A stretch of DNA of 64,000 bases from Spirochaetota bacterium (GTDB taxonomy: Bacteria > Spirochaetota > UBA12135 > COTS27 > CAXSBA01): the NCBI GenBank assembly GCA_965224715.1, contig OZ245054.1, positions 906,411 through 970,410 on the forward strand, read 5' to 3'. Numbering within the stretch: position 1 is the first letter of the stretch; every line of letters starts with the position of its first letter. A program made the translations under genes and the position numbers. Shown here one piece after another: positions 37,179 through 62,582 of this stretch. The notes under the pieces are model-generated. The model did no database searches and had not been told where the DNA came from. It saw only the letters and a program-made list of their open reading frames with translations.

Positions 37179-37217
37179 TGAATAAATCCTTTTGATAAAT
37201 TTTTAAATAATGATATT

Positions 37218-37246: not shown

Positions 37247-37418
37247 AGGGCCTTTTTACATGAAATTTTTTCGCTGTGATATGAAAATTTTATGGATTCA
37301 GCGACGACAAAAGAGTTAACGGTTCATCATAATTTTTTCCTTTATTTAGGAAAGAATCAATATTATGGAACCGACTTTGTCGTCGCCATATAACTTGTAT
37401 TACTTCGATAAGAGGAAA

Positions 37419-44609: not shown

Positions 44610-44632
44610 TCCCTTATCCTCTAACTCTATTT

Positions 44633-47600
44633 ATGATTGAATTTTTCATTAGACAACATAAGATGATGAATCTGGTTTTGATCGGAATCATCGTTATCGG
44701 GGCGTATTATTTCGTAATCGGACAAAAAGAAGGTTTCCCTAATATCGGCTTGGATCAAGTTTATATCAGTACCTCCTATCCGGGAGTGTCAGCCAAAGAT
44801 ATAGATACCCTTATTACTTCCAAGATTGAAGATGCCATTGAATCTGTAGATGGCATTAAAGATATAAAATCTACTTCTTCACAAGGACAATCCACCATTA
44901 TTGTTTCTATCGATACTGTGAACAGTGGTGTGGATTTGGATACGGTAGCTAGTAAAATTCGTGATAAGATCGATCTTATTAAGAAAGACCTTCCCGCAAA
45001 TTTGGATTCCGATCCAGTGGTTCAAACTATCTCTTTTGCCGAAGTTATGCCCATCATCCAAGTTTTCATAGCCGGCGATCTTGATTTTAATGAATTGAAA
45101 AAGATAGCCGATCAATTCAGTACTCGGATGGGCAATGTTTCCGGGGTTAGTAAAACCGAAAAAGTCAATTATCCCAAAACTCAGGTATGGGTCTCTATCG
45201 ATCCACAAAAACTGGAGAAATACGAAATCGATATAAGTGAAGTGGGCAATGCGGTTAGAGCTGCCAATCTCAATATGCCCAGCGGAACCATCAAAGATAA
45301 TAATGAAGAGATCATTATTAAGACCTGGAATCCTCTCCAAAATGTTTCAGACATTGAAAGCATCATTATCCGTGGTAATGATAACTTTCAATCGATTCGT
45401 ATTAAGGGTTTAGCACGAACTGAAGTAACCTCGGAAACGCTTAGAGAAATTATTGAAAGTGACGGGAAAGCTGGAATAGGGGTTAGCGTTTTCAAAAGTT
45501 TGAATGGAGATGTGATTGATGTTGCCGATGCTACCAAAGATTTGATTAAGGAATTTCAAGAACTATATCCAAACCTTACCATCTTCCATATTCAAGATAT
45601 TTCTTTTTATGTGAAAAGACGGCTCAATGTTTTGGGTAATAATGCTACTATTGGGCTTCTCTTGGTTTTTCTCTGTCTCATCATCTTTTTTGAATTCCGA
45701 GTCACTTTTTGGACCACATTGGGTATCCCGGTATCTTTATGTTTTGCCCTTATTGCCTGTTATCAATTGGGGATCACCCTTAACCTTATGAGTATGTTTG
45801 GTTTTATTATTGTTCTTGGGATGTTGGTTGATGATGCTATTATCGTCTCGGAAAATATCTATCAAAAATACGAGAAGGGGATGCCCTTGATGGAGGCTGC
45901 TGTCAGCGGTGCTCAGGAGATGTTAATTCCGATTCTCGCTATTGTGGCCACCACCATGGCCTCTTTCCTGCCCTTGATGACCCTTCCTGATATTTTTGGA
46001 AAAGTTTTAGGAATTATTCCCCAGGTTGTCGTTTTAGCGATGATCGCCTCTTTTCTGGAGTCCCTCCTCATCCTTCCCGGACATATCGCTCATATGAGAG
46101 ATCGAAACATCGGTCGTAAAGAACATCAAGGCGAACTCCAGAAACAATTTATCGAGTCCCCCTATAATATAAGCAATGAGACAGTGCCGGACTTTTCCAA
46201 TGTAGCTGCTCTTTCAGTTCATGGAAAGTTGGGGCAAAAACAAAAAAAGCCTCCCCAAGAAAAAAGACAATGGTTCAATAAACTACGTAATTTTTATATC
46301 AACCTGATTACACGACTCACCTTGAGACCGGTTCTCAGCGCTACTTTTATTCTGTTGTTGTCCATTGCGATCCTTTTGGGTCTTGGTAGTCAACTTAGGT
46401 TCGTTTTCTTTCCCGGTGAGGCTGAGGATATCATTCTCAATATCAAATTGGATAAGAAAGCACCCATTGAAAAAACCCAAGCCGCATTACGGAAATTGGA
46501 AAGACAATTACGTGTCCAATTAGGTAATGATGTACGAGAGTATTTTTCCACAGCTGGGTCAACCCAAGAAATTGACCAAGCTAATAAATTAACGAGGAGC
46601 TATGTGGGTAATGTTTATATGAATATCTACCCTAGTGAAGAACGGAAATACAGTGTTGGGGAGATCACTAAAATTATGGAAGATACCGCGGCAACCGTTC
46701 CGGAAGTGAAAGAAGCCTATGTTGTTGCCTTCGCAGGTGGTCCACCCGCAGGAAACCCGGTGGAAGTAGAGATGTTCTTTGACAATATCGAGTCTATGGG
46801 TAAAGCTAAACTCATGGCAGATAAAATGAAAGAATTTATCTCGGGTATCCCTAATACCACTTCAGAAACAGTGAGTTATGAAGAGGGTAAAGAAGAAATT
46901 ATCCTCACTCCTAATATTGATCGTGCTATAGTCTATGGGATAAATCTAGATAAAATCGGTACTATCGTAGGCTCTTCTTTTCAAGACTTCCCAGTTACCA
47001 CGATTAATGATTTTACCGGAGTGGATGGAGAGGTGGAAGTGGTGGTTAAATTAGATGAAGAGAAGGTAACTCAGTCCACTGTTACCAACCTCATGGTCAA
47101 GAGTTTGTTCGGGAAGAATTTAGGGCTTGATAATTTTGTTACCGCAAATACTATTGTGGGTGAAGGCCGAATCACTAAGGAAAATGGCCGCTATACATTG
47201 AAGGTAGCCTCCCAATTAGAAGATGTCGAAGCTAAAGAATATACTGGACAGAAGATCAATCAAGAAATCAAGAAAAAAATCCCGGAATGGGAAAAAGAAT
47301 TTCCGGAAGCAGATTTTCTTTTAGGTGGAGAACAAGAAGAACAACAGAAACTCATGTTTGGAGGAATTCGTGCTTTCCTTCTCTCACTTTTCGGAGTACT
47401 CTTAGTGTTAGTAACAATTTTCAGGAGTTACCTCCAACCCTTCATTATCATGAGTGTTCTGCCATTTATCACTGTAGGGGCGACGATCGGTCTTTTTATC
47501 AATGATGTTCCCGTTGGTCTTATGCCCCTCTTGGGGATGGTGGCTCTCACCGGAGTGGTGGTCAACGACTCCATCGTTATGGTCAATCTTATCAATAAAA

Positions 47601-47878
47601 AACGTCTTCATGATCACCACCGACCTCTCCGAGAAATTGTGATTGAATCTGCCGGGCAACGGCTTCGAGCTATTCTTATGACCACCATCACCACTATCGT
47701 AGGGCTTATTCCTATCGCTTATGGAATTGGGGGAGAAGAGCCCTTCATTGCTCCCATGGCCATTACTTTTCTTTGGGGAATGGTCTTCTCGTCATTGATG
47801 ATCCTTCTCCTCATTCCCAACTTCTATTTGATCATTGATAAGATCAGGCATTTTCCCTCCCGCTTTCGTAAATCTTAA
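44633..47878 (+). CDS. RND-superfamily efflux permease (AcrB/HAE1-like, 1081 aa)
   Basis: 12-TM, two-large-loop architecture. GMLVDDAIIVSENI matches the AcrB motif; GMVALTGVVVNDSIVMVN is the second pseudo-repeat. Confidence 0.8.
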   Translation: MIEFFIRQHKMMNLVLIGIIVIGAYYFVIGQKEGFPNIGLDQVYISTSYPGVSAKDIDTLITSKIEDAIESVDGIKDIKSTSSQGQSTIIVSIDTVNSGVDLDTVASKIRDKIDLIKKDLPANLDSDPVVQTISFAEVMPIIQVFIAGDLDFNELKKIADQFSTRMGNVSGVSKTEKVNYPKTQVWVSIDPQKLEKYEIDISEVGNAVRAANLNMPSGTIKDNNEEIIIKTWNPLQNVSDIESIIIRGNDNFQSIRIKGLARTEVTSETLREIIESDGKAGIGVSVFKSLNGDVIDVADATKDLIKEFQELYPNLTIFHIQDISFYVKRRLNVLGNNATIGLLLVFLCLIIFFEFRVTFWTTLGIPVSLCFALIACYQLGITLNLMSMFGFIIVLGMLVDDAIIVSENIYQKYEKGMPLMEAAVSGAQEMLIPILAIVATTMASFLPLMTLPDIFGKVLGIIPQVVVLAMIASFLESLLILPGHIAHMRDRNIGRKEHQGELQKQFIESPYNISNETVPDFSNVAALSVHGKLGQKQKKPPQEKRQWFNKLRNFYINLITRLTLRPVLSATFILLLSIAILLGLGSQLRFVFFPGEAEDIILNIKLDKKAPIEKTQAALRKLERQLRVQLGNDVREYFSTAGSTQEIDQANKLTRSYVGNVYMNIYPSEERKYSVGEITKIMEDTAATVPEVKEAYVVAFAGGPPAGNPVEVEMFFDNIESMGKAKLMADKMKEFISGIPNTTSETVSYEEGKEEIILTPNIDRAIVYGINLDKIGTIVGSSFQDFPVTTINDFTGVDGEVEVVVKLDEEKVTQSTVTNLMVKSLFGKNLGLDNFVTANTIVGEGRITKENGRYTLKVASQLEDVEAKEYTGQKINQEIKKKIPEWEKEFPEADFLLGGEQEEQQKLMFGGIRAFLLSLFGVLLVLVTIFRSYLQPFIIMSVLPFITVGATIGLFINDVPVGLMPLLGMVALTGVVVNDSIVMVNLINKKRLHDHHRPLREIVIESAGQRLRAILMTTITTIVGLIPIAYGIGGEEPFIAPMAITFLWGMVFSSLMILLLIPNFYLIIDKIRHFPSRFRKS

Positions 47879-47891
47879 CTAATCCTTTACG

Positions 47892-48563
47892 ATGAAAAAA
47901 AAAATCTATGCCGCTTGGTTTTCCGGTAAGGAAAAATCGGCGGTTTTTTATGATAGTTGGGAAGCCTGTAAGCCTCAAGTGGAAGGGGTTTCCGGTATCC
48001 GTTATCGGGGTTTCCTAGACCGAAAACATGCTGAGGAATTTTTGGGAATCACCCCCTCCGATCACGGTCTGGATATTCCCGATGATACCTTGTTTCGAGA
48101 TAAAGAGGCTGAAAATACCCTCATTATTTATGTGGATGGCTCTTTTCAAGAGGGCACTCCTTATGCCGGATGGGCTTGGGTGGCTCTCACCCATCATAAT
48201 CAAAAAGATACCTTGGTTGGAGAAGATTATGGCATAACCGCAGAACCAGCCCTAAGCCGCAATATCGACGGGGAAATCACTGCAGTGTTGGAATCGGTGA
48301 AATGGGTGGAAAATTATCTGCCTACCCAAAAAAGTGATTGGCAAAAAACCAAGGTGGTTGTTCTCTATGACTATCAGGGAATAGAATCCTGGGCTATGGG
48401 GAAATGGAAAGCCAAAACCCTCATCAGTCAACATTACCAAAAAGAGATGATCCCTTACCGAAATTATATCCATTTCCACAAAGTTTCTGCTCATTCCGGT
48501 AAAAAATGGAATGAATACGTGGACCGACTGGCCAAGGAAGCAGTTTGGAAGTTGAAAGGATAG
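47892..48563 (+). CDS. rnhA: RNase H type 1 with N-terminal hybrid-binding (caulimovirus viroplasmin-like) domain
   Basis: HBD: KIYAAWFSGKEKSAVFYDSWEACKPQVEGVSGIRYRGFLDRKHAEEFL. RNase H core: IYVDGS...GEITAV...HKVSAHSGKKWNEYVDRLAKEA. Confidence 0.7.
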   Translation: MKKKIYAAWFSGKEKSAVFYDSWEACKPQVEGVSGIRYRGFLDRKHAEEFLGITPSDHGLDIPDDTLFRDKEAENTLIIYVDGSFQEGTPYAGWAWVALTHHNQKDTLVGEDYGITAEPALSRNIDGEITAVLESVKWVENYLPTQKSDWQKTKVVVLYDYQGIESWAMGKWKAKTLISQHYQKEMIPYRNYIHFHKVSAHSGKKWNEYVDRLAKEAVWKLKG

Positions 48564-48797: not shown

Positions 48798-51700
48798 ATG
48801 AAAATTCTTGGAATTGATATGGGAATCACTTCTATTGGATGGGGCCTTATTCACTTTAATCCTCGGGAAAGAGAAGAAACTCGAATTATCGATGCCGGGG
48901 TAAGGATTTTTACCAAGGCTGAGCATCCAAAAGATGGATCTTCTCTGGCACTTCCTCGCAGAGAAGCCAGGGGAAGAAGACGAATATTAGTTAGAAAAAG
49001 GGAAAGGATGCAGAAAATCAAGGAGCTATTTATCGAGTATTTTGGTCTTGACCGTGAAAGTCTTTTTGAGATAGGGGATTACGGTTCTGGAACGATTTTT
49101 AAGGAGAAGAAGAAGAGTGATGTTTGGGAACTTAGAGATGCAGCCCTTGAAAGAAAATTAAGTCTAAAGGAGATGGCTAGAGTCCTGACCCATATCGCCA
49201 AACGCAGAGGTTATCATTCCAACAGTAAATCTGATGATTCAGAAAAAGACAAAGGTAAGGTTATTGAAGCGATTAAGGCTAATCAAGAAAATTTAAAAAA
49301 ATTAGGCTATTCTACACCGGGACAAATGATGTATCGGGAATCTCAAAAAAGTAGTTCCAAATCCGGTGATTATTTTTTACGAATTCGAAATACTACCAAT
49401 GATTATCGCCATGTAGTAACTCGGGAAATGCTCCGCGATGAAGTGGAAAAAATTTTTTCTGTTCAGAAAAAATTTTCCAAAAAATATTCTTCAGAGTTAA
49501 AGAACCGGTATTTGGATATAGCCTTTTATCAAAGACCACTCAAATCCAGCGAAGATATGGTAGGACCTTGTACTTTTGAGTCTGATGAAAAAAGGGCTCC
49601 TAAATACAGTTATAGTGCTGAACGATTTGTTTTGCTTGGCAAGATTATCAATACCATGATGATCGATGCCGGTGAAAATAATCGGTATAAAGAAAAGCGT
49701 CTCCTTGACTTCTGTCCGATGGATAAAATTCTTGAAGTCTTTCATGACCAGAAAGAGGTGAAATACCAAACTTTGAGGAAAAATTTAGAGATAGCAGATC
49801 ATCTCAAATTTAAAGATGTCAACTATAACGAGGATCCGGAGAATAAAAAGCTTCCCAAGGTAGATTCTTTTTTTAAAAAAGAGACCTGGTTAGAGAAAGA
49901 TCAAAAAGAACTCTTGACTTATAATGATAAGGAGAATCATTCACACTTTCATAAATGGATCCGAAAATATACGGACATTAGAAGGGCTTTGAAACTTGAT
50001 AAGAATTTTGAATTTATCTCTTTGAAAAGTGATTATAAGAAGCACCCTGAAAGCAAGGAATTCTACTCGCTAAAGGGGTATCATATTTTCAAAAAAGCAT
50101 TATCTTCAGAAGAATTTGAACAGTTTTTTCAAAATCTTTCGGTTTATAATGAGGTAGCTTATATCTTAACCGTAGAGCAAGGAATTAAAGAAATCCGAGA
50201 GCGTTTAGAGTCTATTCCTGGCATTTCCTCCTATATCGATAAGCTGGTCACCATTACGGGCTTTAAGGGATTTAATCATTTGTCCATTAAGGCGATGAAC
50301 AAACTTACCCCTCATCTTAGGGCTGGGAAACGATATGATGAGGCTGCTCGGGAGGTGTATGGACATCACTCGGTTAAAAAGGGAAATCAGGCTGAACTCC
50401 TGAGAATCTTGAATCGAGAAGAGAATTATCAACTTACCAACCCGGTGGTGAAACGGGCCTTCGCTCAATTTCGCAAGGTTGTTAATGCAATAGTCCGAAA
50501 GCATGGTCAGTTTGATAGCCTTCATATTGAACTAGCCCGCGAGCTAAAGCATAGTTACAAGCAACGGCAAGAAATCATACGGGGGCAAAATGAATTTAAA
50601 GGTAACAAGGATGCGGCTAAGGAAAAGTTTATAGAACTCTGTCGCAGAGAACCGGCTGCGAGTGAACTTCTAAAATTTCGTTTGTGGGAGGAACAAGAAG
50701 GGAAATCAGTTTATAGCGGTAAGCCTATCTCTATTAACGAATTGGCAAAAAACGATAAGGCTTTCGAAATTGATCATATTCTTCCTTATAGTCGAACTTT
50801 CGATAATACCCTCAATAACAAAGTTTTGGTGTTAGCAGAAGAGAATCAACATAAGAAAAACCGAACTCCCTTTGAATGGTTGGGAAAGAAAAATGAAGAC
50901 GATCCCTCCTGGCTGGAATTCAAAAGTCGATTATTCAGTTTTAAGAATTTGGGAAAAGCTAAGATTAATAAACTTTTCAATACCACCCTGTCTCAAAAAC
51001 ACGGGGAAGAATTCGATGAAGACGATCCGGAAAGTAATTTTTTCATCAATCGCAATCTCAACGATACTCAGTTCATGGCTAAGTTTATTAAAAATTTTGT
51101 GGAACAGAACCTTAAATTTGCCGATAACCCGGATGTCAAGCAAAAGGTCAAAGTGAGGAATGGGATGGTAACTTCTCATCTTGCCTATCTTTGGGGAATA
51201 GGTCGGGTGATCCAGGAAATCCTTCCTACTGAAAAAGAAGATCGAGATGGAAAAGATCCGACCAAGAAGATTCGAGATAATCACCTCCACCATGCCCTTG
51301 ATGCCCTGGTGATTGCCGCTACCACTCAAAGCGAAGTGCAGCGGATGTCCACTTATTCTGCCCGTTTTGAAGATTATCAGTTCAAAAGTAAGGAGGAGAA
51401 GGAGAAAGTTAAAAAACTGAGAACCTCCACGCCCTTCAATGACGAGGAACTGAAGCGGAAACTCTCGAATATTTTTCCTTCCTATGCTCCCCGTCGTAAG
51501 GTGACCGGAGCCGCCCATGAAGAAACCCTTTACAGTGGAAAAACTTATCAGTCAAAAAACAAATCCAAATTGGTCGGAGCTAGCCTTAAGTACCCGGTAA
51601 AACTCAACCACGGAAAGACCTTGGCTAAAAAAAGTTCCATGCCTCGTATCGATCTCTTCCGTCATGTGGAAAACAAAAAATATTTCATCGTCCCCATCTA

Positions 51701-52097
51701 TGTAGCTGACTTTGTCAAAAAACAACTGCCCAGTCATGCGATTATTGGCGGAAAAGATAAGGAAGGAAACCCCAAACCCTGGTTAGAGATGGATGATAGC
51801 TATGAGTTCATCACTTCCATCTATAAGAACGATCTCATCGAAGTGAAGACAAAGAAGGAAACAGTAAGAGGCTACTTTGATAGCGCTGACAGTAGTACCG
51901 GTACTATCTCTTTAAAATCTCCTCAAACCGGTCATCCTTTTAGGAAAGGTATGGGAATTCAAGGAGCTTTACAAGTTCGTAAATTCGAGGTCTCTCCTCT
52001 TGGTGAAATCCATGAGGTTTCCCTCCCTCAAGATCGGGTGGGAACCCTCCATGAGTTGAGAAGGATCAAGAAAGAAAAAGCAATGGATAAAAACTAA
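48798..52097 (+). CDS. cas9: Cas9 (type II-C size class, 1099 aa)
   Basis: RuvC-I MKILGIDMGITSIGWG. Arg-rich bridge helix RREARGRRRILVRKRER. HNH EIDHILPYSRTFDNTLNNKVLV...NRTPFEW. RuvC-III HHALDALVIAATT. RBS aaaggag lies 6 nt upstream. Confidence 0.95.
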   Translation: MKILGIDMGITSIGWGLIHFNPREREETRIIDAGVRIFTKAEHPKDGSSLALPRREARGRRRILVRKRERMQKIKELFIEYFGLDRESLFEIGDYGSGTIFKEKKKSDVWELRDAALERKLSLKEMARVLTHIAKRRGYHSNSKSDDSEKDKGKVIEAIKANQENLKKLGYSTPGQMMYRESQKSSSKSGDYFLRIRNTTNDYRHVVTREMLRDEVEKIFSVQKKFSKKYSSELKNRYLDIAFYQRPLKSSEDMVGPCTFESDEKRAPKYSYSAERFVLLGKIINTMMIDAGENNRYKEKRLLDFCPMDKILEVFHDQKEVKYQTLRKNLEIADHLKFKDVNYNEDPENKKLPKVDSFFKKETWLEKDQKELLTYNDKENHSHFHKWIRKYTDIRRALKLDKNFEFISLKSDYKKHPESKEFYSLKGYHIFKKALSSEEFEQFFQNLSVYNEVAYILTVEQGIKEIRERLESIPGISSYIDKLVTITGFKGFNHLSIKAMNKLTPHLRAGKRYDEAAREVYGHHSVKKGNQAELLRILNREENYQLTNPVVKRAFAQFRKVVNAIVRKHGQFDSLHIELARELKHSYKQRQEIIRGQNEFKGNKDAAKEKFIELCRREPAASELLKFRLWEEQEGKSVYSGKPISINELAKNDKAFEIDHILPYSRTFDNTLNNKVLVLAEENQHKKNRTPFEWLGKKNEDDPSWLEFKSRLFSFKNLGKAKINKLFNTTLSQKHGEEFDEDDPESNFFINRNLNDTQFMAKFIKNFVEQNLKFADNPDVKQKVKVRNGMVTSHLAYLWGIGRVIQEILPTEKEDRDGKDPTKKIRDNHLHHALDALVIAATTQSEVQRMSTYSARFEDYQFKSKEEKEKVKKLRTSTPFNDEELKRKLSNIFPSYAPRRKVTGAAHEETLYSGKTYQSKNKSKLVGASLKYPVKLNHGKTLAKKSSMPRIDLFRHVENKKYFIVPIYVADFVKKQLPSHAIIGGKDKEGNPKPWLEMDDSYEFITSIYKNDLIEVKTKKETVRGYFDSADSSTGTISLKSPQTGHPFRKGMGIQGALQVRKFEVSPLGEIHEVSLPQDRVGTLHELRRIKKEKAMDKN

Positions 52098-52165
52098 CCA
52101 TAGCTTATCAAAGTCATTAAAGAACCGGGGAGTCAATATCGAGAATTTAACTACCTTTTTTATTA

Positions 52166-53077
52166 TTGATTATGGCTTGGCGATCTGTTTCTATCACCCA
52201 TCCCGCTCATCTTTCGGTGTCTTCGGGTCGTCTCAAGATCGCCCAGGAAGAAACCCATTTCCTCCCTCTCGATGATCTTAATGCTATCATCTTGAGTCAT
52301 CCCCGGATATCTCTTACCGCTCCCCTCCTGGGACGGTTGGCAGATCACAATATTGCGGTGTTTAGTACCGATGAACGGCATCTCCCTAATGGGGTTTTTT
52401 ACTCCTTTCAGGGTCATAGTCGGCAGACCAAGATGATCAAGGAGCAGATCGGTTGGTCATTACCTTTTAAAAAAAGGATGCAGCAGAAAATCATAATCAA
52501 CAAAATCAGAAATCAGGGAGAGGTTTTAAATTACCTCTATCCCGAGACTCGTCCGGGAGAAAAGCTGTTTCCTTTAATCAAGGATGTTGATTCCGGTGAT
52601 CGCCGCAATCGAGAGTCGCAGGCTGCCAGTCAATATTTTCGAATCTTATTTCATGCCTTTAACCGTCGAGCAGACAACCTCCACAATGCGGCTCTCAATT
52701 ACGGCTATTCCTTAGTCAGGGGATTTACCGCCCGGGCAGTTGTAGCCCATGGTTTTATTCCCTGTTTGGGACTTTTTCATGATAGTGAGCTTAACTCGTT
52801 TAATTTAGCCGATGATCTCATGGAGCCTTACCGTCCCCTCGTGGATGAGAGAATATTCCAATTACTGGGAAAAGATACCCGAAAAGTATCCGACAGTGAA
52901 CTTAGCCCGGAATTAAAAAAATCTATAGCGGAGATTATTTTCACTCCCTGTCGATTGCGGGGGGAGGAATTACAGCTTCATCACAGCCTGGATGTTCTCG
53001 CTCGAAGTCTTAGCAGTGCCTCCCGGCATAATGACTACAAACGTTTTTTAGAAGTGGAGTTGATTTTATCTTCATGA
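52166..53077 (+). CDS. cas1: Cas1 (type II). TTG start in the ORF track; alternative ATG at 52172
   Basis: NAALNYGYSLVRGFTARAVVAHGFIPCLGLFHDSELNSFNLADDLMEPYRPLVD matches the type II Cas1 core. 4-nt overlap with cas2. Confidence 0.9.
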   Translation: MIMAWRSVSITHPAHLSVSSGRLKIAQEETHFLPLDDLNAIILSHPRISLTAPLLGRLADHNIAVFSTDERHLPNGVFYSFQGHSRQTKMIKEQIGWSLPFKKRMQQKIIINKIRNQGEVLNYLYPETRPGEKLFPLIKDVDSGDRRNRESQAASQYFRILFHAFNRRADNLHNAALNYGYSLVRGFTARAVVAHGFIPCLGLFHDSELNSFNLADDLMEPYRPLVDERIFQLLGKDTRKVSDSELSPELKKSIAEIIFTPCRLRGEELQLHHSLDVLARSLSSASRHNDYKRFLEVELILSS

Positions 53078-53400
53078 AAGAGGAGGATCGGTTTTTGCGT
53101 CTTTTTGTTTTTTTCGATTTACCGGTAGTGAGCGAACAGGAAAGAAGCCGAGCCGGTCGTTTCCGGCGACTACTCATTAAAAATGGTTTTTTTATGATAC
53201 AGTTCTCCATTTATTGTCGAATCTGTCGAGGACAGCAGAATGTGGATAAATATCGCAAACGGATCAAATCCTATCTCCCCCCTTACGGCAATATTCGCCT
53301 CATGCAGGTAACAGAGAAACAGTTTGAGAATATGGAAATTTTACTAGGAAAATTTAAAAAAGAAGAAAAATTTAAAGATAATCAACTTCTCCTTTTTTAA
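53074..53400 (+). CDS. cas2: Cas2
   Basis: LRLFVFFDLPVVSEQERSRAGRFRRLLIKNGFFMIQFSIY is a typical Cas2 N-terminal beta-alpha fold signature. 108 aa. Confidence 0.85.
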   Translation: MKEEDRFLRLFVFFDLPVVSEQERSRAGRFRRLLIKNGFFMIQFSIYCRICRGQQNVDKYRKRIKSYLPPYGNIRLMQVTEKQFENMEILLGKFKKEEKFKDNQLLLF

Positions 53401-53521
53401 AAAATTCAGAAAAAATTTGACTCAAGTCACAGTTTTAGCCCCTCCTCAATGTATTTTTTTGATCAAAAAAACCTTGATTTCCTAAGTTTTTCCATAGAAA
53501 ATCAGGGTTTTTTCGAGACGT

Positions 53522-55404
53522 ATTATAACACAGAAAAGGTGGTAAGTGGGCTATAACGGGGCAGATGACAAATACGGAAATATCGATATTATAACACAGA
53601 AAAGGTGGTAAGTGGGCTATAACACTGCGGGTTTTAGCTACATAGAATTAATTATTATAACACAGAAAAGGTGGTAAGTGGGCTATAACTTGAACCCCAT
53701 TATTCAGAATTTAAATAATATTATAACACAGAAAAGGTGGTAAGTGGGCTATAACGGTTATCTTGAATTCACCTATTCCTCAGATATTATAACACAGAAA
53801 AGGTGGTAAGTGGGCTATAACACTAAAGCTCAAGGGGGGTTCAAGGTAACAATTATAACACAGAAAAGGTGGTAAGTGGGCTATAACCCTGTACCTGTGT
53901 TCTTTGGTGAGGTTGCAATTATAACACAGAAAAGGTGGTAAGTGGGCTATAACATCGATTACAAACTCTTGTGCCGCCTCAAGATTATAACACAGAAAAG
54001 GTGGTAAGTGGGCTATAACGATTTAAGGAAGAAGAAGGCAGAAGCTGACATTATAACACAGAAAAGGTGGTAAGTGGGCTATAACTAGTCATAGCCACGC
54101 CTGCCACAAGGTCTCATTATAACACAGAAAAGGTGGTAAGTGGGCTATAACTTCATAGATAGTCCAATGGAAAGTGTCGATATTATAACACAGAAAAGGT
54201 GGTAAGTGGGCTATAACGATGACACCAGAGCAACAAATAAAAAAGTTATTATAACACAGAAAAGGTGGTAAGTGGGCTATAACGAATAAATACCCTTTAT
54301 GCTTATAACTCTAATTATAACACAGAAAAGGTGGTAAGTGGGCTATAACTGATACTATGAACGAAGATAGGAAAATAAAGATTATAACACAGAAAAGGTG
54401 GTAAGTGGGCTATAACGCCTCTGATTTAATATTCTTAAACGCCTCAATTATAACACAGAAAAGGTGGTAAGTGGGCTATAACCGATATATATCGCAGAAG
54501 TTACCTGTAGACATTATAACACAGAAAAGGTGGTAAGTGGGCTATAACTATTGTACTAAACTGCTACTTTTTAATTTTATTATAACACAGAAAAGGTGGT
54601 AAGTGGGCTATAACAAAGGTAATTTAAGTAGTAAGAGAGTAGCTATTATAACACAGAAAAGGTGGTAAGTGGGCTATAACTCGCACCCGTGTTAGTATTC
54701 GTGGGTGTGAATTATAACACAGAAAAGGTGGTAAGTGGGCTATAACGGCAAAAAAAAACACACCTTAAGATTATTATTATAACACAGAAAAGGTGGTAAG
54801 TGGGCTATAACCTTCGTCAAGGAGCAGTACTGACACCGATTATTATAACACAGAAAAGGTGGTAAGTGGGCTATAACATCTTGAGTTCACATACTCGGCT
54901 GAGTATGATTATAACACAGAAAAGGTGGTAAGTGGGCTATAACTCAGGGTTTGTGATGATGAACGGATCTTTAATTATAACACAGAAAAGGTGGTAAGTG
55001 GGCTATAACATATTAATAGAATACACGCCAGACTGTCAGATTATAACACAGAAAAGGTGGTAAGTGGGCTATAACCTTTGTCCCCATCGATAAGAGGTTT
55101 GTCTATTATAACACAGAAAAGGTGGTAAGTGGGCTATAACACCCCATACCCTCCCCCACCAGTTGGGGAGATTATAACACAGAAAAGGTGGTAAGTGGGC
55201 TATAACAGGTACATTGGTCTTGTGAAAGCTATCGGGATTATAACACAGAAAAGGTGGTAAGTGGGCTATAACCATTAAGTCGATGTCATGAGTTGAAAGA
55301 ACATTATAACACAGAAAAGGTGGTAAGTGGGCTATAACTCAGAGGTTACGAGTTGGTTACGAGTTGTCATTATAACACAGAAAAGGTGGTAAGTGGGCTA
55401 TAAC
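53522..55404 (-). CRISPR. CRISPR array: 29 identical 36-bp repeats and 28 spacers (29-31 bp, mostly 30). The crRNA sense is inferred to be the minus strand (repeat 5'-GTTATAGCCCACTTACCACCTTTTCTGTGTTATAAT-3')
   Basis: Repeat starts at 53522, 53588, ... 55369 (period 66). Plus-strand repeat is ATTATAACACAGAAAAGGTGGTAAGTGGGCTATAAC. The minus-sense repeat begins GTT.TAG like other type II repeats and ends in the extended -10 TGTTATAAT. Confidence 0.95.
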
Positions 55405-55424
55405 TCGGAAGGCTTATAAAAAAT

Positions 55425-55803: not shown

Positions 55804-56910
55804 CTATACTTTAGGAAAGAAAATATAGGGTTTGTTGATTACGTGGACGGTAACCTGGTCGCCGATATTTTTTTCAAAGTCTGCCGGCATTAGTGAATAA
55901 AGGATTAAATGATCCTGATCTGAGGAATTGGGATAAGCGATTTGAACCCGATAGAGATAGCTTCCACTTTGAAATTCTTTCCCGACAATCACCCCGATGG
56001 CCGTACCTTTCTTTTTCTCTCTTCTATTCAAAATAACATTTTCCGGCCTTAGGTGAACCCTGACCTCTTGTTCTTTGTAACATTTAATATTCGACGGACT
56101 ATTGCCCTTAAAAGAAAACCAATGATTAATTGCTTGATTTTGGGAATAAATCGCTGTAACAAAGGATCCGATGCCGATGAAACCTGCTGTAAAGCAAGTA
56201 GTGGGAAAGTAATAGATTTCCTTAGGGGTTCCAAGTTGTTCCAACCGGTATTCTTGCATGACACCGACACGATGAGATATTTTAAAAGCCTCATTTTGGT
56301 CATGGGTGACAATTAAGGTAGTGATCTTCTCTTTTTGAAGAAGATACAATACCGAATCAATGATCTTGGCTTTGAGTCCCACATCTTGACTGGTGAAGGG
56401 TTCATCCATGAGGAGTAACTTGGGGCGAGGTGCGATAGAACGAGCCAAAGAGGTACGTTGCTGCTGTCCTCCGGAGATTTCATGCGGATATTTCTCAGCA
56501 AGAGGGAGGATGTCGAGGATATTCAGGATCTCTCGGATTCTTTCCTGAGTTTCAGACTTTTTTTGTGCTGCCTTGGGGATACCAAATATCACATTTTCAT
56601 ATACGGTGAGGTGGGGAAAGAGAGCATTATCTTGAAAGACCATGCCGAGTCCACGTTTTCGGGTAGGGAGTGATTTACTTGGAGTTTGTACTGTGGAACC
56701 TGAAATACAGATTTTCCCATTACAGATGTTTTCTAATCCGGCAATATTTTTAAGTAAGGTAGTTTTGCCGCAACCGGAGGGACCCAGTAGAGAAATGATC
56801 TCTTCGGGATAAATAGTAAGAGAGAAATGATCCAAAATAATTTTATTTCCGTATTTTGAAGTAATTTCTTTGATCTCTAAAACCGGTGTCATGTTTTTCA
56901 TTGTTTCCAT
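55804..56910 (-). CDS. ABC transporter ATP-binding protein (Fe3+/spermidine PotA/FbpC type)
   Basis: Walker A LLGPSGCGKTT, signature SGGQQQR, Walker B LLLMDEPF. C-terminal TOBE-like domain. Confidence 0.8.
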   Translation of the reverse strand: METMKNMTPVLEIKEITSKYGNKIILDHFSLTIYPEEIISLLGPSGCGKTTLLKNIAGLENICNGKICISGSTVQTPSKSLPTRKRGLGMVFQDNALFPHLTVYENVIFGIPKAAQKKSETQERIREILNILDILPLAEKYPHEISGGQQQRTSLARSIAPRPKLLLMDEPFTSQDVGLKAKIIDSVLYLLQKEKITTLIVTHDQNEAFKISHRVGVMQEYRLEQLGTPKEIYYFPTTCFTAGFIGIGSFVTAIYSQNQAINHWFSFKGNSPSNIKCYKEQEVRVHLRPENVILNRREKKKGTAIGVIVGKEFQSGSYLYRVQIAYPNSSDQDHLILYSLMPADFEKNIGDQVTVHVINKPYIFFPKV

Positions 56911-58565
56911 TCCAAAAAGTTGACTTCGGTTTTCCGGGCACGATCGATATGGCGGGTTAGGAGGATAACCGGGAGTAATCCCAGGAGGACAATAGTTAAA
57001 GCTGAAGGAGAAGCCAAGGTTAAATTTTCATTAGAAGCATAGGTAAAAACATGGGTAGCCAGATTTTCATAGTTTAGGGGACGGAGGATGATCATCAAGG
57101 GGAGCTCTTTCATTACATCAACGAATACAATAATGAAAGCGGTAAAGATACATTTTTTAAGTAGGGGAATATCCAGAGTTAGGGCCCGCTCCCATCGGGT
57201 CTTTCCTAAAATATTTGCGGAATGATAGATATTTTCTGAAATCTTACGATGTCCGGTTTCGATAGAACCTAGGGGAATGGTAATGAAGCGGATCACATAG
57301 GCAAAGATTACTGCCAGGAGCGTTCCTCCGATGAAAAAGATATTCTCAATAAGAACGTTGATGCTCATAACCACCGGGATAATGCCAATACCCAATAAGG
57401 TGCCGGGCAAGGCATAACCGATGGAAAAGGCGGGAAGAACAGTATGGATAACTTTTGATTTATGGGTTACTACTGTCTTGACTACCAAAAAAGCGATGAT
57501 ACAGGTAAGGGAGGCTATGAGAAAAGCTAAACTTATACTATTCCAGGAATAGAGGAGGTATTCAGTTATGGTGGTGTTGGAGTTTTGTCCTCTTAGGGTG
57601 ATGATGCTAAAGTAGATGAGGATAAGGAGTGGGATAATGAAACCGATAAGGACAGGCATTCCAGTTATAGTTATAGCCAAAGTTGCTTGAGGGAATTTAA
57701 GTTTTCGTTGAGGAAGGGGTTGCTGGTTATTTTCAAAATGTCGTTTTTTGGACCGTTGCCATTTTTCTAAATATATCATCGTTAAGATGAGAATCAAAGT
57801 GATGATAGCGATATGAATAGCTCCCTCTAAACTTCCCATATTGATCCAGAAGTTATAGGCTCCCAATGAAAGGGTAGGGATGGAAAAATAACTTACGGTT
57901 CCAAAATCAGCGAGTATTTCCATCATCACTAGAAAAACCCCTAATACAATCGCAGGACGAGTAAGAGGCCAGGAAATTTTGAAAAAAAGTTGTCGAGAGG
58001 AAAGTCCGAAAACTTGAGCGGTTTGTTGGAGAAATTGTGATTGTTCTAAAAAAGCTTTCCGGGCAAACATATAAACATAGGGGTAAAGACTAACAGCAAA
58101 AAAAACAATCGCTCCCGGCAAACTTCGGATTTCTGGAAACCAATAGTCCTGAGGTCCCCAGCCCGTCCAGGTTCGAAGAATGGTTTGAATGGGGCCGGGG
58201 TAGTCAAAAATTTCAGTGTAGATAAAAGCTATGAGGTATGAGGGGAAGGCAAAAGGAAGAAGAAGAAGCCAAATCAAATAACTTCGTCCAGGAAAACGGT
58301 AGAAAGTAACAATCCAAGCGGTAAGAATACCCAAAATGGTAGCGAGGAATCCAGATCCGATCATCAGTATCAAAGTATTACTGACATATAGGGGGAGCAT
58401 GGTTTGGTAGAGATGTTTCCATATCTCACCTTCGACATCCCAGGAACCGACCCCTAATTTAAGAATGAAGAAAACCGGGGATAGAAAAATTGAGAGGGTG
58501 ATGAAAATAATCACTCCCCGCCGATCCAAGAAATCCGGCCAGTGAAAAGGGTAATGCTTTGGCAA
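56898..58565 (-). CDS. ABC transporter permease, two-domain Fe3+ (FbpB-like) type
   Basis: 555 aa, ~12 TM. Duplicated binding-protein-dependent permease modules. 13-nt overlap with the ATPase gene. Confidence 0.75.
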   Translation of the reverse strand: MPKHYPFHWPDFLDRRGVIIFITLSIFLSPVFFILKLGVGSWDVEGEIWKHLYQTMLPLYVSNTLILMIGSGFLATILGILTAWIVTFYRFPGRSYLIWLLLLPFAFPSYLIAFIYTEIFDYPGPIQTILRTWTGWGPQDYWFPEIRSLPGAIVFFAVSLYPYVYMFARKAFLEQSQFLQQTAQVFGLSSRQLFFKISWPLTRPAIVLGVFLVMMEILADFGTVSYFSIPTLSLGAYNFWINMGSLEGAIHIAIITLILILTMIYLEKWQRSKKRHFENNQQPLPQRKLKFPQATLAITITGMPVLIGFIIPLLILIYFSIITLRGQNSNTTITEYLLYSWNSISLAFLIASLTCIIAFLVVKTVVTHKSKVIHTVLPAFSIGYALPGTLLGIGIIPVVMSINVLIENIFFIGGTLLAVIFAYVIRFITIPLGSIETGHRKISENIYHSANILGKTRWERALTLDIPLLKKCIFTAFIIVFVDVMKELPLMIILRPLNYENLATHVFTYASNENLTLASPSALTIVLLGLLPVILLTRHIDRARKTEVNFLEWKQ

Positions 58566-58611: not shown

Positions 58612-60216
58612 TTATTGGTCAAACTGGATGGAATCCAGAATTTGGATTGTTTTTCGCCTTTCTGCTACAACTTTATCTAAACTGAGGTCATCCCATTTCT
58701 TATCAGACATATAAGTTTTAAGAAAACTGGATAGGGGAATGCCCTTTTTAACTGGGTACTCGTAATTCTCTGAAGAATAGATATATTGAGCTATATCGCT
58801 TACCAGGAATTCCATAAGTTTAATTGCCGATGATTTATTGGGGGCGTATTTAGCCAAGGCCATTCCGCTAACATTGTAATGGGTTCCTCGATTATCTTGA
58901 TTAGGGAAGATCAAATTGACAGATTTCGCCCATTTGATTTGTTCCGGTTGGTCGTGATTGTAGAGCATCTTGGCATAATAATAACTGTTGCCAATCGAAA
59001 GGTCACAGAGCCCTTCTTTGATGGCTTTTACTTGAGCCCGGTCATTTCCTTGAGGTTTACGAGCAAGATTTCTTTTCAAATTTTTAAGAAATTTTTCGGT
59101 GGCTGTTTTTCCCTCATGAGCGATAATAGATGAGAACAGTGCCAAATTATAGGGATGGTATCCGGAACGGATACAGATTTTTTTTTTCCATTTTGGATTA
59201 GCTAGATCAGCATAATCCTTGATATCACCTTCTTTAATCCGATCCTTAGAAGCATAGATAATTCGAGCACGGGTAGTAAGGGCAAACCAGGTTCCCTCTT
59301 TGTTACGAAGATTAGACGGGATGGCAGACCTTATTTTTTTACTTCTTACTTTTTTAACGATGTCGTTGTTTTTCAATTCAATCAATTGGCCTATATCGGT
59401 AGTCAAAATCACATCAGCGGGGGATTGCTTCCCTTCTAATTTGATCCTTTCCGCTAATCCCTTTTTGATGTAAATTGTATTAACTTTAATACCTGTGGTC
59501 TTTGTGAATTTATCTAATATCCCTTCGATGAGAAATTGCTGTCGGTAGGAATATACATTGACTTCCTTGGCATTGACTTCAGATAAGACAAAAAAGGCTA
59601 GGAAGAAAACTAGGGCGGAAACTTTTAATCGTCTTACTTGAACAAAATTCTTAACCGGACTTAATATCGAGCCTATTAATCCTATGATAGAACCTTTGCT
59701 TTGTTTATCAGTAGCAGAGGTTTTTTGAGGTTGAAGATTTTTTTGACTCGTTGTTTTGGCTTTAACACCATGATGATTGTTATTGTTGTCCAGATGATAA
59801 GGAGTGAGAATTTCCGATAAAGAAATACCTTTATAAATTTCACGAAATTTATTGTTCAATAGACGCATCGGGTCAATGATACTACAACCATAATCATAGT
59901 TACAAGACTTATCCACATTGATACAATTCACTATGGTGTAATGTCCTTCTAGTACTTCCAACAGTTGGAGTAAGGAAATTTTAGAGAGATCCTCGTTAAG
60001 ATAATAACCACCATGAGCCCCTTGTTTGGATATTAAAATTTGCTTTTTACCTAATTTTTGCATCACTTTAGCCACAAAATCTTCAGAAATTTTATGGACT
60101 CTAGCGATCTCATGGGCTTTAACCACAATTTGACTATCTTTATTATTTAGATTTTTTTCTTCAAGATGTTTTAATATTATTAAAGCAAATTCAACTTTTT
60201 TAGTTAACGATATCAT
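58612..60216 (-). CDS. Single ORF fusing an Rrf2/IscR-like winged-helix regulator domain (N-terminus, with a Cys cluster), one TM/signal-like helix, and a periplasmic Fe3+-type solute-binding protein (FbpA/AfuA-like)
   Basis: N-terminus: MISLTKKVEFALIILKHL...VHKISEDFVAKVMQKLGKKQILISKQGAHGGYYL...VNCINVDKSCNYDYGCSI. Middle: VSALVFFLAFFVLSEVNA. C-terminus: EVNVYSYRQQFLIEGILDKFTKTTGIKVNTIY...ADVILTTD... No in-frame ATG/GTG/TTG lies near the hydrophobic segment. Confidence 0.5.
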   Translation of the reverse strand: MISLTKKVEFALIILKHLEEKNLNNKDSQIVVKAHEIARVHKISEDFVAKVMQKLGKKQILISKQGAHGGYYLNEDLSKISLLQLLEVLEGHYTIVNCINVDKSCNYDYGCSIIDPMRLLNNKFREIYKGISLSEILTPYHLDNNNNHHGVKAKTTSQKNLQPQKTSATDKQSKGSIIGLIGSILSPVKNFVQVRRLKVSALVFFLAFFVLSEVNAKEVNVYSYRQQFLIEGILDKFTKTTGIKVNTIYIKKGLAERIKLEGKQSPADVILTTDIGQLIELKNNDIVKKVRSKKIRSAIPSNLRNKEGTWFALTTRARIIYASKDRIKEGDIKDYADLANPKWKKKICIRSGYHPYNLALFSSIIAHEGKTATEKFLKNLKRNLARKPQGNDRAQVKAIKEGLCDLSIGNSYYYAKMLYNHDQPEQIKWAKSVNLIFPNQDNRGTHYNVSGMALAKYAPNKSSAIKLMEFLVSDIAQYIYSSENYEYPVKKGIPLSSFLKTYMSDKKWDDLSLDKVVAERRKTIQILDSIQFDQ

Positions 60217-60324
60217 AAGAGATTATCCTCCTCTTTTTCAATAATTTTTTCAACTTTATACAGGACATAATATGTCCTGTATAATTATAGCATATATTTC
60301 AGTTGAGAAGAAAAAAAAGAGAAT

Positions 60325-62063
60325 TTAATGAAGAAAATGGCGTGTGGAGGTAAAAACCAGTTCGATTTTCCGTTTTTTAGCTTCAGCGATTACCTCATCA
60401 TCACGAATGCTGCCTCCTGGTTGAATAATTTTACGAATTCCACAGTCATAACTTGCCACAATACTATCTTTAAAGGGGAAGAAGGCATCACTTGCGAGAA
60501 CACAGTCGTGAAGTAAAGTTTCTAACTCTGTTTTAGGTAATTGCGGAAACATTCTGGACAAGTTATCTTTAGCTTTTACAATAGCTAGTTTTTTGATGGA
60601 ATCAATTCGGTTGGGTTGACCAGTTCCAGCACCCAGAAGCATGAATTGACCGTTTTGATAAGGATAGCAGATACAGATTGCATTACTTTTAAGGTGTTTG
60701 ACAGTCCGAAAGGAGAATTCATAAAGATCAACATTCATCCTTTCTTTCTTTTTAAAGCCTGTTGAGCTCATTTTGCTATAGAGTTGCTGATCTTTTTCTT
60801 GGACTAGTATTCCTCCGGTAATAAAATGATAAGTTAATTCTTTAATTTCATTTTTAATCTTACTGATTTTCATATTACGGAGATTGGTTTCGGTTAATAC
60901 CTTAGACTGTGGGGTTTTGATAATCCTAAGGCTCTTACTTTTTTTCTTAAGCCATGCCAAAGCTTTAGGTTCAAAGTCAGGAGCTAAAATAACTTCAATA
61001 AATTTATCATTCAAAAATCGAATACTCTTAAAATCGAAAGTCTGATTGGTTGCGACAATTCCACCGTAGGCGGAAACTGGATCTCCTTCCCAAGCCATTT
61101 CTAAACAAGTAGCGAGATTATCTCCTGTGGCTAATCCGCAAGGATTGCCATGTTTGACAACAACAGCTGCCTTACTCGGGAAAAAATCCCAAACACAAGC
61201 CAAGGCGGCTTCAGCATCCAAATAATTATTATAAGACATGGCTTTGCCATTGAGGATTTCCGCTCCGATTAAAGTTGGCTGTTGATTTATAGGGCCTATT
61301 TTACCACCCTGATTAAGGGGAGATGAGCTATCTTTTTGGGATAGGTAATTCTCTGGATTATAAGAAGAATATATCCAAGCCTTCTGGTGAGGGTTTTCTC
61401 CGTAACGAAGTTCACGGCCACTTTGAAAATGTAGATTAAGATTTTTTTCTTCGAAATAAGTTTCACTAAAGTAGTTGGAAATAGTTAGGTCATAATGGGC
61501 TGTTGTTCTGAAGGCTTTAATGGCCAGATACCTTCGAGTTTCCGAATCTGTATTTTTTTTATATCGTATCTGTTGGATAACTTTTTCATAATCATTGATA
61601 TCGGAAACTACAGTCACCCATTCATGATTTTTAGCGGCAGCTCTTATAAGAGCCACACCGCCGATATCTATATTTTCGATAGCACTTTTGGTATTGGCTT
61701 TACCTGATTTAATAGTTTTTTCAAAAGGATAAAGATTAACAACTACAAGGCGAAGATCAACATAACTGAGTTCCCGGATCATCCGGCTGTCTGAAGTATG
61801 ATTGCGGCGATAGAGAATGCTGGCATGGATAGCAGGATGCAGGGTTTTTACTCGCCCTTCCAAAATTTCAGTAAAGTGGGTAAGATGTTCGACTTTATGA
61901 ACGTCAAGACCTTCTTTTTTTAGGTAAGAATAGGTTCCACCACTGAATAGATGACAATTCCACTTCGAGCTAAATTTTGAGCAAATTCTTTTATCCCAGT
62001 TTTATCAGAAACCGAAATTAGGGCTGCGGTTATTCGATTTAACTCTTTTTTTGATTTTTTCAT
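60325..62063 (-). pseudogene. purH: purH (bifunctional AICAR transformylase/IMP cyclohydrolase) interrupted by a -1 frameshift near 61945-61960
   Basis: Frame A from ATG at rc(62061-62063) gives MKKSKKELNRITAALISVSDKTGIKEFAQNLARSGIVIYSVVEPILT*. The -1 frame continues FSGGTYSYLKKEGLDVHKVEHLTHFTEILEGRVKTLHP..., which joins the 512-aa ORF 60325..61863. Confidence 0.7.
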
Positions 62064-62582
62064 TTTTCGTATGAAATAAGTCTTATAAAATTTTATGTTA
62101 TTAATTATAATATTAATTGTCATTTTTAGCAAATTCTCTTTTTTAAAAAAAAGAATTTAACTCTCAGTTCATTGAAAAATCAGTGTTTAAATGTAAATAA
62201 TGAAGAAATAGTTTTTATCAAATAAGCTTTTATACATTGATTTATGATAAATTCTTTAAAGTTATAGGGATTAAGTTACAAAAACAAAGGCTAATAAGTT
62301 GAAATGAAAGTCAGTTGTCAAGGTATCGGTCTTTTTATTGAATACAAGATAAACGAGAAAATTGACAGCTTAAATTTTATTTATTTATTAAGTATGGATA
62401 TATTAAAACTTAAAAAACTTTGAAGGTAATTGAACCCATTTTTTGAAATATCTGTCTTGTTTTACACATCATCGGTATTCCAAAATGATATTTACCCCGC
62501 TGATTTGTCGGCTATTTGTTCCAATTTTTTTTAAATATATACTCAATATAGCTTTACAATCCGATTTAGCTTTTTTTATTTA

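Follow-up and report, generated by a model that had tools for sequence, protein, structure and literature searches.

The stretch of DNA analysed here, 64,000 nucleotides of contig OZ245054.1 from a Spirochaetota bacterium (hereafter the window), carries on its minus strand an iron operon whose first gene joins, in a single reading frame, a regulator of the Rrf2 family to a periplasmic Fe3+ binding protein of the FbpA type. This open reading frame (ORF) extends from an ATG at position 60216 to a stop codon at 58612-58614 and encodes 534 amino acids, and the same ORF is present in two further assemblies, L003 (535 amino acids) and L004 (534 amino acids). The ATG is preceded by GAGGAGGA, and the Shine-Dalgarno region of the fused gene, read from the sequence as AAGAGGAGGA (60226-60235), is kept in both L003 and L004. 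An Rrf2 domain with clustered cysteines, a linker, a hydrophobic segment and a complete FbpA domain had all been assigned to this one ORF by the initial annotation, and all of them are indeed present, followed by genes for a permease and an ATPase on the same strand; the minus-strand orientation of the ORF had gone unmentioned there.

The amino-terminal half corresponds to the winged-helix DNA-binding and dimerisation domain of the Rrf2 family (amino acids 4-137; 59806-60207), which was recognised by Pfam PF02082 with an E value of 7e-23 (81.6 bits against a cut-off of 30, covering model positions 1-130 of 132), and the NCBIfam model rrf2_super (TIGR00738; 74.7 bits against a cut-off of 73.3) also places it in the Rrf2 superfamily. 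Within this domain there is a cysteine triad, C98-x6-C105-x5-C111 (59884-59925), which we presume, from what is known of the Rrf2 family, to provide the ligands of an Fe-S cluster. The three cysteines are kept in all three fused proteins as well as in the Rrf2 protein of the closest unfused relative (locus L001), and the distant homologues P0124 and P0125 have three cysteines at similar spacing (C-x8-C-x5-C and C-x7-C-x5-C). None of the named Rrf2 equivalogs reached its NCBIfam cut-off, with scores of 42.7 versus 207.55 for IscR, 62.5 versus 110.65 for suf_reg_Xantho, 42.4 versus 193 for RirA, 20.7 versus 182 for NsrR and 39.9 versus 195 for CymR, and therefore the name IscR should not be used for this protein. 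Beyond the Rrf2 of L001, the nearest homologues of this half are only about 37% identical.

The carboxy-terminal part, amino acids 217-534 (58615-59568), has the features of a mature FbpA-type periplasmic Fe3+ binding domain. Pfam SBP_bac_6/8/1/11 models match at about amino acids 227-501, and phmmer aligned it along nearly its whole length (query amino acids 2-317 of 318) with the FbpA of Mannheimia haemolytica (1q35, E 1e-97), as well as with a Bordetella FbpA (1y9u, E 2e-90) and Synechocystis FutA1 (2pt1, E 5e-75). The AlphaFold2 model has a predicted local distance difference test score (pLDDT) above 90 over amino acids 217-534, and R225, R316, Y356, Y412 and Y413 are identical to the aligned R10, R101, Y142, Y198 and Y199 of 1q35, residues which we take to be its ligands for iron and for the synergistic anion, carbonate.

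This domain is co-encoded with an FbpB-type double-length permease and an FbpC-type ATPase. The permease gene (56898-58565) has a maximal ORF of 555 amino acids, matches Pfam BPD_transp_1 and is similar over its full length to the fused-type permease PhnU2 (amino acids 30-534); its likely start is the GTG at 58514, giving 538 amino acids, as in L003 and L004. The product of the following gene (55804-56910) is an FbpC-like ATP-binding cassette (ABC) ATPase (Pfam ABC_tran, E 2e-34; NCBIfam ferric ABC ATPase PRK11432, E 6e-73), with a likely start at the ATG at 56901. Overlapping stops had been described for the genes of this operon, which is the case for the permease and the ATPase, joined by an ATGA at 56898-56901, but not for the binding-protein stop codon (58612-58614), which is separated from the permease gene by 46 nucleotides up to the first possible start (TTG 58565) or by 97 nucleotides up to the GTG at 58514.

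Between the two domains lies a low-complexity linker rich in N, H, K, Q, S and T (amino acids 141-193; 59638-59796), which derives from the carboxy-terminal tail of the Rrf2 protein, from what was once intergenic spacer and from the original 5' end of fbpA. No secondary structure was modelled by AlphaFold2 over amino acids 136-186, where pLDDT is below 50. A run of adenines at 59738-59744 within the linker has seven bases in the window and in L003 and eight in L004. Ten residues close to the end of the linker (SIIGLIGSIL, amino acids 176-185; 59662-59691) are invariant in the three fused lineages, with synonymous changes only, and their DNA carries TAG, TAA and TAG in the +1 frame; this segment may be left over from the earlier boundary between the genes or have a function of its own. 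As a sign of function, a ten-residue invariant run is not significant for three sequences in which about 34% of the junction positions are variable.

The hydrophobic segment that follows (VSALVFFLAFFVL-SEVNA, amino acids 199-216) has the layout of a Sec-type signal peptide (59569-59637), with an n-region VRRLK (amino acids 194-198), an h-region of 13 residues, VSALVFFLAFFVL (amino acids 199-211), and a c-region SEVNA (amino acids 212-216), ending at a predicted signal peptidase I site, VNA|KE (A216|K217), after which the chain continues as KEVNVYSYRQ. It lies in the sole stretch of the protein that is of transmembrane grade (amino acids 197-215, Kyte-Doolittle 19-residue mean of 1.81) and was modelled by AlphaFold2 as a helix at amino acids 191-210, so that a DNA-binding domain and one transmembrane-grade segment are found in one polypeptide. 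With flanking charges of +4 on the amino-terminal side and 0 on the carboxy-terminal side, the amino terminus of the membrane segment would face the cytoplasm, and V-N-A|K would be a signal peptidase I site on its outer side. The small-x-small motif is kept in the three fused lineages (VNA, ANA and VNA), and the substitutions in this segment, S to P at -5 and V to A at -3, fit the grammar of cleavable signal peptides. In stand-alone binding proteins the predicted cleavage falls at the same place: P0004 reads ...FAFA|KEVNVYSYRQ, P0005 ...FAFA|SEVNVYSYRQ, P0003 ...LLA|NEVNVYSYRQ and P0006 ...SIA|QEVTVYSYRQ, and in 1q35 the chain starts two residues ahead of EVNVYSYRQ. As far as the sequence allows one to tell, this segment is thus the ancestral Sec signal peptide of FbpA, retained and now internal. 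The initial annotation had considered a cleavable signal peptide with a lost Met start as a finding that would refute its reading of a membrane-tethered sensor, and the n-h-c layout, the position and the small-x-small motif agree with such a signal peptide.

Two other possibilities for this region were considered and rejected. Export by the twin-arginine translocation system, suggested by the RR of VRRLK, is unlikely, given that L004 has RW at this place and that the motif does not fit S/T-R-R-x-F-L-K. A promoter match within the linker (59711-59684) is attributable to chance, as the region has a total of 16 matches when 13.9 are expected, and a transcript starting there would still have no start codon.

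A separate binding-protein gene has no place to begin within this frame. Codon reading verified the earlier statement that ATG, GTG and TTG are missing there: no such codon occurs in frame between codons 121 and 268, including all 76 codons of the linker and signal segment, for which the codon usage of the window predicts 3.6, the probability of finding none being about 0.025. Codons 141-216 are likewise devoid of ATG, GTG and TTG in all three fused lineages. There is consequently no independent fbpA gene with its own amino-terminal methionine and signal peptide, the signal peptide being internal; both the stop codon of the Rrf2 gene and the start codon of fbpA are lost, and FbpA is translatable only as the carboxy-terminal part of a 534-amino-acid precursor. 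As the FbpA domain has no canonical start and is nevertheless conserved, the long ORF should be what gets translated, unless a near-cognate codon is used.

The 90%-identity cluster of the fused protein has three members, P0001 (from NCBI/ENA), P0121 (535 amino acids) and P0122 (534 amino acids), the latter two from two different Logan-assembled runs; the loci L003 and L004 correspond to SRR14371711 and SRR14371676, respectively. Pairwise nucleotide identities between the fused genes of the window, L003 and L004 are 91.7-93.6%, and the three appear to be distinct populations rather than re-assemblies of one sample. Gene order in L003 and L004 is as in the window (purH, fused gene, permease, ATPase), with a transaldolase gene ahead in L003 only. 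When the junction codons of the three lineages were aligned, many substitutions were seen, and no indel, stop codon or canonical start. Between the window and L003, about eight indels were counted in about 650 nucleotides of flanking intergenic DNA and none in the 228-nucleotide junction, with identities of 91.2% in the junction, 93.5-95.2% in the domains and 87-92% in intergenic DNA.

Ratios of nonsynonymous to synonymous substitution rates (dN/dS), calculated by the Nei-Gojobori method for the three fused lineages (dS 0.17-0.31), were 0.03-0.09 for the Rrf2 domain and 0.07-0.10 for the FbpA domain, and reached 0.39-0.53 in the linker and 0.24-0.76 in the signal segment. Since the divergence of the three fused lineages, purifying selection has therefore acted strongly on both domains, and it is relaxed in the linker. 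The permease and ATPase genes have 94% nucleotide identity and no frame-breaking indels.

In the 108 nucleotides between purH and the fused gene, an inferred promoter was read from the sequence as an extended -10 element, TGcTATAAT (60284-60292, minus strand; TG at 60292-60291 and TATAAT at 60289-60284), and the same TGnTATAAT arrangement precedes the unfused Rrf2 gene in L001. The element is absent from the listing of a simple consensus promoter scan, and no TTGACA-like -35 hexamer was seen by eye at the usual spacing. A perfect 14-1-14 palindrome, TTATACAGGACATA-T-TATGTCCTGTATAA (60256-60284; arms 100% complementary), begins on the final base of the -10 hexamer and extends over the site where transcription should start, and is a candidate Rrf2 operator. 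It is unique in the window, where 0.00 matches are expected, and has one or two changes in L003 and L004; shorter palindromes, AATAGGACAAT-T-ATTGTCTTATT and AATAAGACTAA-n-TTAGTCCTATT, occupy the corresponding position ahead of the unfused Rrf2 genes in L001 and L002, so that the palindrome is conserved upstream of five Rrf2 genes, fused and unfused. Its core, ARGAC-W3-N-W3-GTCYT, has a single copy in the window, where 0.03 would be expected, and a single copy in each of the loci L001-L004, in every case shortly ahead of the start of the Rrf2 gene. The core motif was not found in L006-L008 nor in L002 downstream of its first site, which indicates that there is no separate Rrf2 site directly before fbpA in these suf-linked relatives. 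The palindrome is likely an autoregulatory Rrf2 operator which, lying across both the -10 box and the start of transcription, would serve for repression; the Rrf2 half is probably an autoregulatory Rrf2-family repressor that senses Fe-S status. An Rfam scan of the window returned two tRNAs only, and nothing near the iron operon.

The origin of the fused gene can be followed in its relatives. In L001, the closest unfused one, purH is followed by separate genes for an Rrf2 protein of 178 amino acids, with a low-complexity tail and a stop codon, a 58-nucleotide spacer with a Shine-Dalgarno sequence, fbpA (365 amino acids), which starts with ATG, fbpB and fbpC; its binding protein is 66% identical to that of the window, and its Rrf2 protein 62-64%. 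Separate genes in relatives had been proposed as the sign of a frameshift in the window, and L001 does have the two genes apart, but the fused frame itself recurs in L003 and L004. In L002 (1-9862) an Rrf2 gene heads sufBCDSU, with fbpABC directly after, an arrangement suggesting that an Rrf2 protein regulates this Fe-S and iron operon and that looks like a combined unit for Fe-S assembly and iron import under one Rrf2 regulator. L006-L008 also contain sufBCDSU-fbpABC, these loci beginning inside the suf genes with their 5' end outside view. The fusion is lineage-specific and joined, in frame, two neighbouring genes of one iron operon: in the lineage of L001 and the window, the Rrf2 gene came to adjoin fbpA, and the clade of the window then lost the stop codon, the spacer and the fbpA start.

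Searches for an Rrf2 domain and FbpA in one protein, as had been recommended, returned the three-member cluster of the query and nothing beyond it among the matches listed. No other such fusion was found among the best 120 of 7909 matches in a search of 5.8 billion proteins, nor among the best 150 phmmer matches in an exhaustive search of 1.84 billion representatives, all of which corresponded to the binding-protein part only. With the Rrf2 domain and linker as query, three proteins were obtained, all short stand-alone Rrf2 proteins, in a search of limited sensitivity, given that it did not return the query's own cluster. A scan of genome contigs for more relatives gave one distant gammaproteobacterial binding protein only, and two scans of metagenome contigs, with an Rrf2 alignment and with a 20-nucleotide junction string, found no relatives. 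Long FbpA fusions do occur among the best 150 phmmer matches, with partners that are not regulators. In the set formed by P0255, P0257, P0344 and P0280, FbpA-type domains are found behind a fatty-acid hydroxylase membrane domain (647 and 678 amino acids), behind an ABC permease (905 amino acids) and behind an amino-terminal hydrophobic segment with an acidic linker of about 150 residues (507 amino acids). These varied upstream partners indicate that the FbpA-type binding protein has become fused time and again to whatever precedes it.

Taken together, these features suggest that the gene is very probably a real fusion translated as one chain, and we favour, with moderate confidence, the proposal that this chain is a precursor cleaved into a free periplasmic FbpA and a repressor that is membrane-anchored or later released. 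The operon would be transcribed from the promoter at about 60290 and the 534-amino-acid precursor translated, with the Rrf2 domain folding and staying in the cytoplasm. The former FbpA signal peptide would act as an internal signal-anchor with its amino terminus in the cytoplasm, the Sec system would export the FbpA domain, and signal peptidase I would cut at VNA|KE (A216|K217), giving a soluble periplasmic FbpA that serves the FbpBC importer. A stub of 216 amino acids, comprising the Rrf2 domain, the linker and the signal peptide, would remain, either held in the membrane or set free by proteases of the signal-peptide or site-2 type, and as a dimer with its Fe-S cluster present it could bind the 14-1-14 palindrome and repress the operon. 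The fusion would thus be largely resolved after translation, the regulator and the binding protein being made one-to-one and production of the regulator being tied to membrane targeting. That the fusion goes beyond an accident that is tolerated and represents a new, processing-dependent regulatory design seems rather doubtful; in such a design the Fe-S Rrf2 repressor would arise solely as the amino-terminal pro-part of an exported FbpA precursor, its location and release (first tethered to the membrane, then freed by signal-peptide or site-2 proteolysis) would be set by the flux through Sec export and signal peptidase, and repression would combine cytoplasmic Fe-S status with delivery of FbpA to the periplasm.

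Several points weigh against this proposal. We infer translation as one chain, export, cleavage and DNA binding from the sequence; an internal signal peptide preceded by about 190 residues may be a poor substrate or escape cleavage altogether; and it would be odd for a repressor to be made in a one-to-one ratio with a binding protein that is abundant. The linker also contains ATA, ATC, ATT and CTG in frame, all of them near-cognate codons. The three fused lineages are close (dS about 0.25) and not independent, which makes the junction a weak test, the probability of finding no indel in it being roughly 0.02-0.06 and that of finding no start codon about 0.025. The AlphaFold2 model of the Rrf2 part has the expected helices with a pLDDT of 40-70 only, a low value that comes from the shallow alignment of its family.

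The initial annotation had allowed for a frameshift as the source of the long ORF, and a sequencing or assembly error that merged two genes in the window assembly alone would find some encouragement in at least one suspicious single-base deletion nearby: purH (60325-62132, minus strand) is split into ORFs at 61920-62132 and 60325-61863 by a one-base deletion at about 61946, where the window has TATT-CAG and L003 and L004, in which purH is intact (579 amino acids), have TATTCCAG. Either purH has truly been inactivated by mutation or this base was miscalled in the assembly. An artefact at the fusion junction is nonetheless extremely improbable, since the same uninterrupted ORF, with an identical frame across the junction, is kept in the two assemblies from other runs, which are 6-8% divergent from the window, and none of the three assemblies offers a start codon for a separate fbpA. 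The same purH deletion, seen beside the fused gene in the window only, could also be taken as a sign of a decaying locus, in which both genes were damaged by a recent deletion and the ORF, an evolutionary accident, is turning into a pseudogene, all the more as the fused clade is small and young; with strong purifying selection across three lineages on both domains (dN/dS not exceeding 0.10) and on the downstream genes, which are free of frame-breaking indels, and with the operator, the Shine-Dalgarno sequence and the signal-peptide grammar all retained, we regard decay as very unlikely.

Given a genuine fusion, the question is whether its product is cut. The initial annotation had seen in it, if real, a membrane-tethered one-component sensor and regulator; the fused architecture is real and unusual, and the sequence agrees better with a processed precursor than with a stable sensor. 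Uncleaved, the protein would be a transmembrane regulator resembling ToxR or CadC, whose tethered FbpA both feeds FbpBC and reports periplasmic Fe3+. Access of signal peptidase can be impeded by a long amino-terminal extension such as the present one, FbpA homologues elsewhere are fused to membrane proteins or anchors (P0255, P0257, P0280 and P0344), and a DNA-binding domain with one transmembrane-grade segment, amino terminus in, is what such a regulator requires. Transmembrane transcription regulators are also widespread, and a catalogue of 50,302 of them includes 128 with an Rrf2 domain and two with SBP_bac_8 (PMC10269533). We nevertheless consider this unlikely: the h-region is only 13 residues long and is followed by a conserved small-x-small site exactly where the predicted cleavage of the relatives falls, the linker, with about 50 residues predicted to be disordered and a dN/dS of 0.4-0.5, is a poor conduit for a conformational signal, the Rrf2 domain already owns a cytoplasmic sensor in its cysteine triad, and the architecture arose by an accident of adjacency in one small clade. 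It is decidedly less plausible still that the two proteins continue to be made apart, through a near-cognate FbpA start (ATA, ATC, ATT or CTG) or through slippage on the A7/A8 run ending the Rrf2 protein, with the long ORF mostly a by-product. ATC and ATA codons do occur at amino acids 177, 178, 181 and 184, within the 30-nucleotide stretch encoding amino acids 176-185, which has only synonymous changes in the three lineages and contains the +1-frame stop codons TAG, TAA and TAG; a Shine-Dalgarno-like AAAGG lies 7 nucleotides upstream of ATA178 in the window and L004, and the length of the A-run varies. The AAAGG is however lost in L003 (AAAAGT), and the peptide read out of frame beyond the A-run shows no conservation, with an earlier stop in L004, such stops being expected in AT-rich DNA. 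Initiation at non-canonical start codons is very inefficient, yet the binding protein is needed in quantity, and separate products would leave unexplained a frame that has remained open and free of indels through 76 codons in three lineages.

The proposed precursor can be compared with several known systems. It resembles the Rrf2 regulators of Fe-S metabolism (IscR, the TIGR02944 SUF regulator, RirA, NsrR and RsrR) in its winged-helix Rrf2 domain with three cysteines in the usual position, in the place of its gene at the head of an iron or Fe-S operon and in the palindrome over its own promoter, a candidate operator, but falls below every equivalog cut-off; to our knowledge, no Rrf2 Fe-S regulator covalently joined to an exported protein has been described. 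With FbpA, HitA, SfuA and FutA (especially 1q35 and 1y9u) it shares full-length similarity, the ligand-aligned residues, a double-length permease and an ATPase encoded downstream, and a Sec signal peptide ending in a signal peptidase I site, predicted in the fused protein; unlike them, it has no initiation codon of its own for the binding protein, and the signal peptide is internal, behind 193 residues of regulator and linker. FeoC, a small winged-helix protein with a Cys-ligated Fe-S cluster that is attached to the Feo ferrous iron transporter, is likewise a winged-helix Fe-S protein physically tied to an iron uptake system, although it does not belong to the Rrf2 family, serves another type of transporter and is not linked through a signal peptide to an exported protein.

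ToxR, CadC and TcpP (PMC10269533) have the same order of an amino-terminal cytoplasmic DNA-binding domain, one membrane segment and a periplasmic ligand-binding domain, but with uncleaved anchors and OmpR-type domains, whereas the fused protein has a short signal peptide of the cleavable type, an Rrf2 domain with its own cytoplasmic sensor and a periplasmic domain that is a transport component. A parallel to the proposed processing is offered by RsiV and RsiP, which combine a cytoplasmic regulatory domain with an extracytoplasmic one and have a signal-peptidase site on the outer side of the membrane, as is predicted here; in RsiP, signal peptidase cuts the regulator at site 1 and a site-2 protease acts next (PMC8844934), and cleavage followed by intramembrane proteolysis would similarly release the cytoplasmic part of the fused protein. 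In RsiV and RsiP, however, cleavage is signal-dependent and frees an anti-sigma fragment, while here it would be constitutive and free a DNA-binding repressor, and the outer part of the fused protein would be a working transport protein. The parts belong to known families and fusions of regulators to membrane segments are known, and an Rrf2 domain ahead of a retained FbpA signal peptide was found nowhere else in the searches made.

If the proposal is correct, this gene would encode a natural bacterial polyprotein, from which a cytoplasmic Fe-S factor and a periplasmic transport protein are obtained out of one chain split by the secretion machinery. It would mean that an amino-terminal signal peptide can keep working with a whole folded domain placed ahead of it, that a regulator and its target, once fused as genes, can be separated again after translation, and that an Rrf2 regulator can act at the membrane or after release from it. 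The fused gene would also offer a compact system for studying how signal peptidase and signal-peptide proteases handle internal signals. An uncleaved protein would instead be a transmembrane regulator of the Rrf2 type whose outer domain binds iron, the first of its kind. In either case the practical reach of the fusion is modest, the fused gene having been seen in three closely related uncultured lineages only. These lineages are probably deep-branching Spirochaetota, a loose placement for which the best named FtsZ matches, all from Spirochaetota, are about 50% identical.

Besides the iron operon, the window contains other genes worth recording. A type II CRISPR-Cas locus (clustered regularly interspaced short palindromic repeats and associated genes; 48798-55405) adjoins the operon and comprises Cas9 (48798-52097, with HNH and RuvC_III domains), Cas1 (52166-53077), Cas2 (53074-53400) and an array at 53521-55405 with a 66-nucleotide period and 27.6 copies, read as a 36-nucleotide repeat with spacers of about 30 nucleotides. 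L003 shares Cas2-Cas1-Cas9, and its array region does not align, which suggests a different spacer content. At 43110-48563 there are genes for a TolC-like outer-membrane efflux protein and an AcrB-type resistance-nodulation-division pump, followed by an RNase H1 with a Cauli_VI-type amino-terminal domain; the outer-membrane efflux protein and AcrB genes point to a cell surrounded by two membranes. Two adjacent Kelch-repeat beta-propeller proteins of 424 and 460 amino acids are encoded at 35904-38801 (minus strand), beside a protein without a family match (34381-35685) and a Big_5 immunoglobulin-like protein (33258-34391). The plus strand carries, at 19941-23598, two genes that overlap, one encoding a squalene epoxidase (PF08491, E 3e-61) and the other a squalene-hopene/oxidosqualene cyclase of 757 amino acids; the pair is the signature of sterol-type triterpenoid synthesis, a pathway uncommon in bacteria. 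Finally, a protein of 1078 amino acids (15164-18400, minus strand) has CHU_C, a family of type IX secretion sorting signals, and FlgD_ig near its amino terminus and OmpA at its carboxy terminus, an odd domain order, considering that CHU_C is normally carboxy-terminal.

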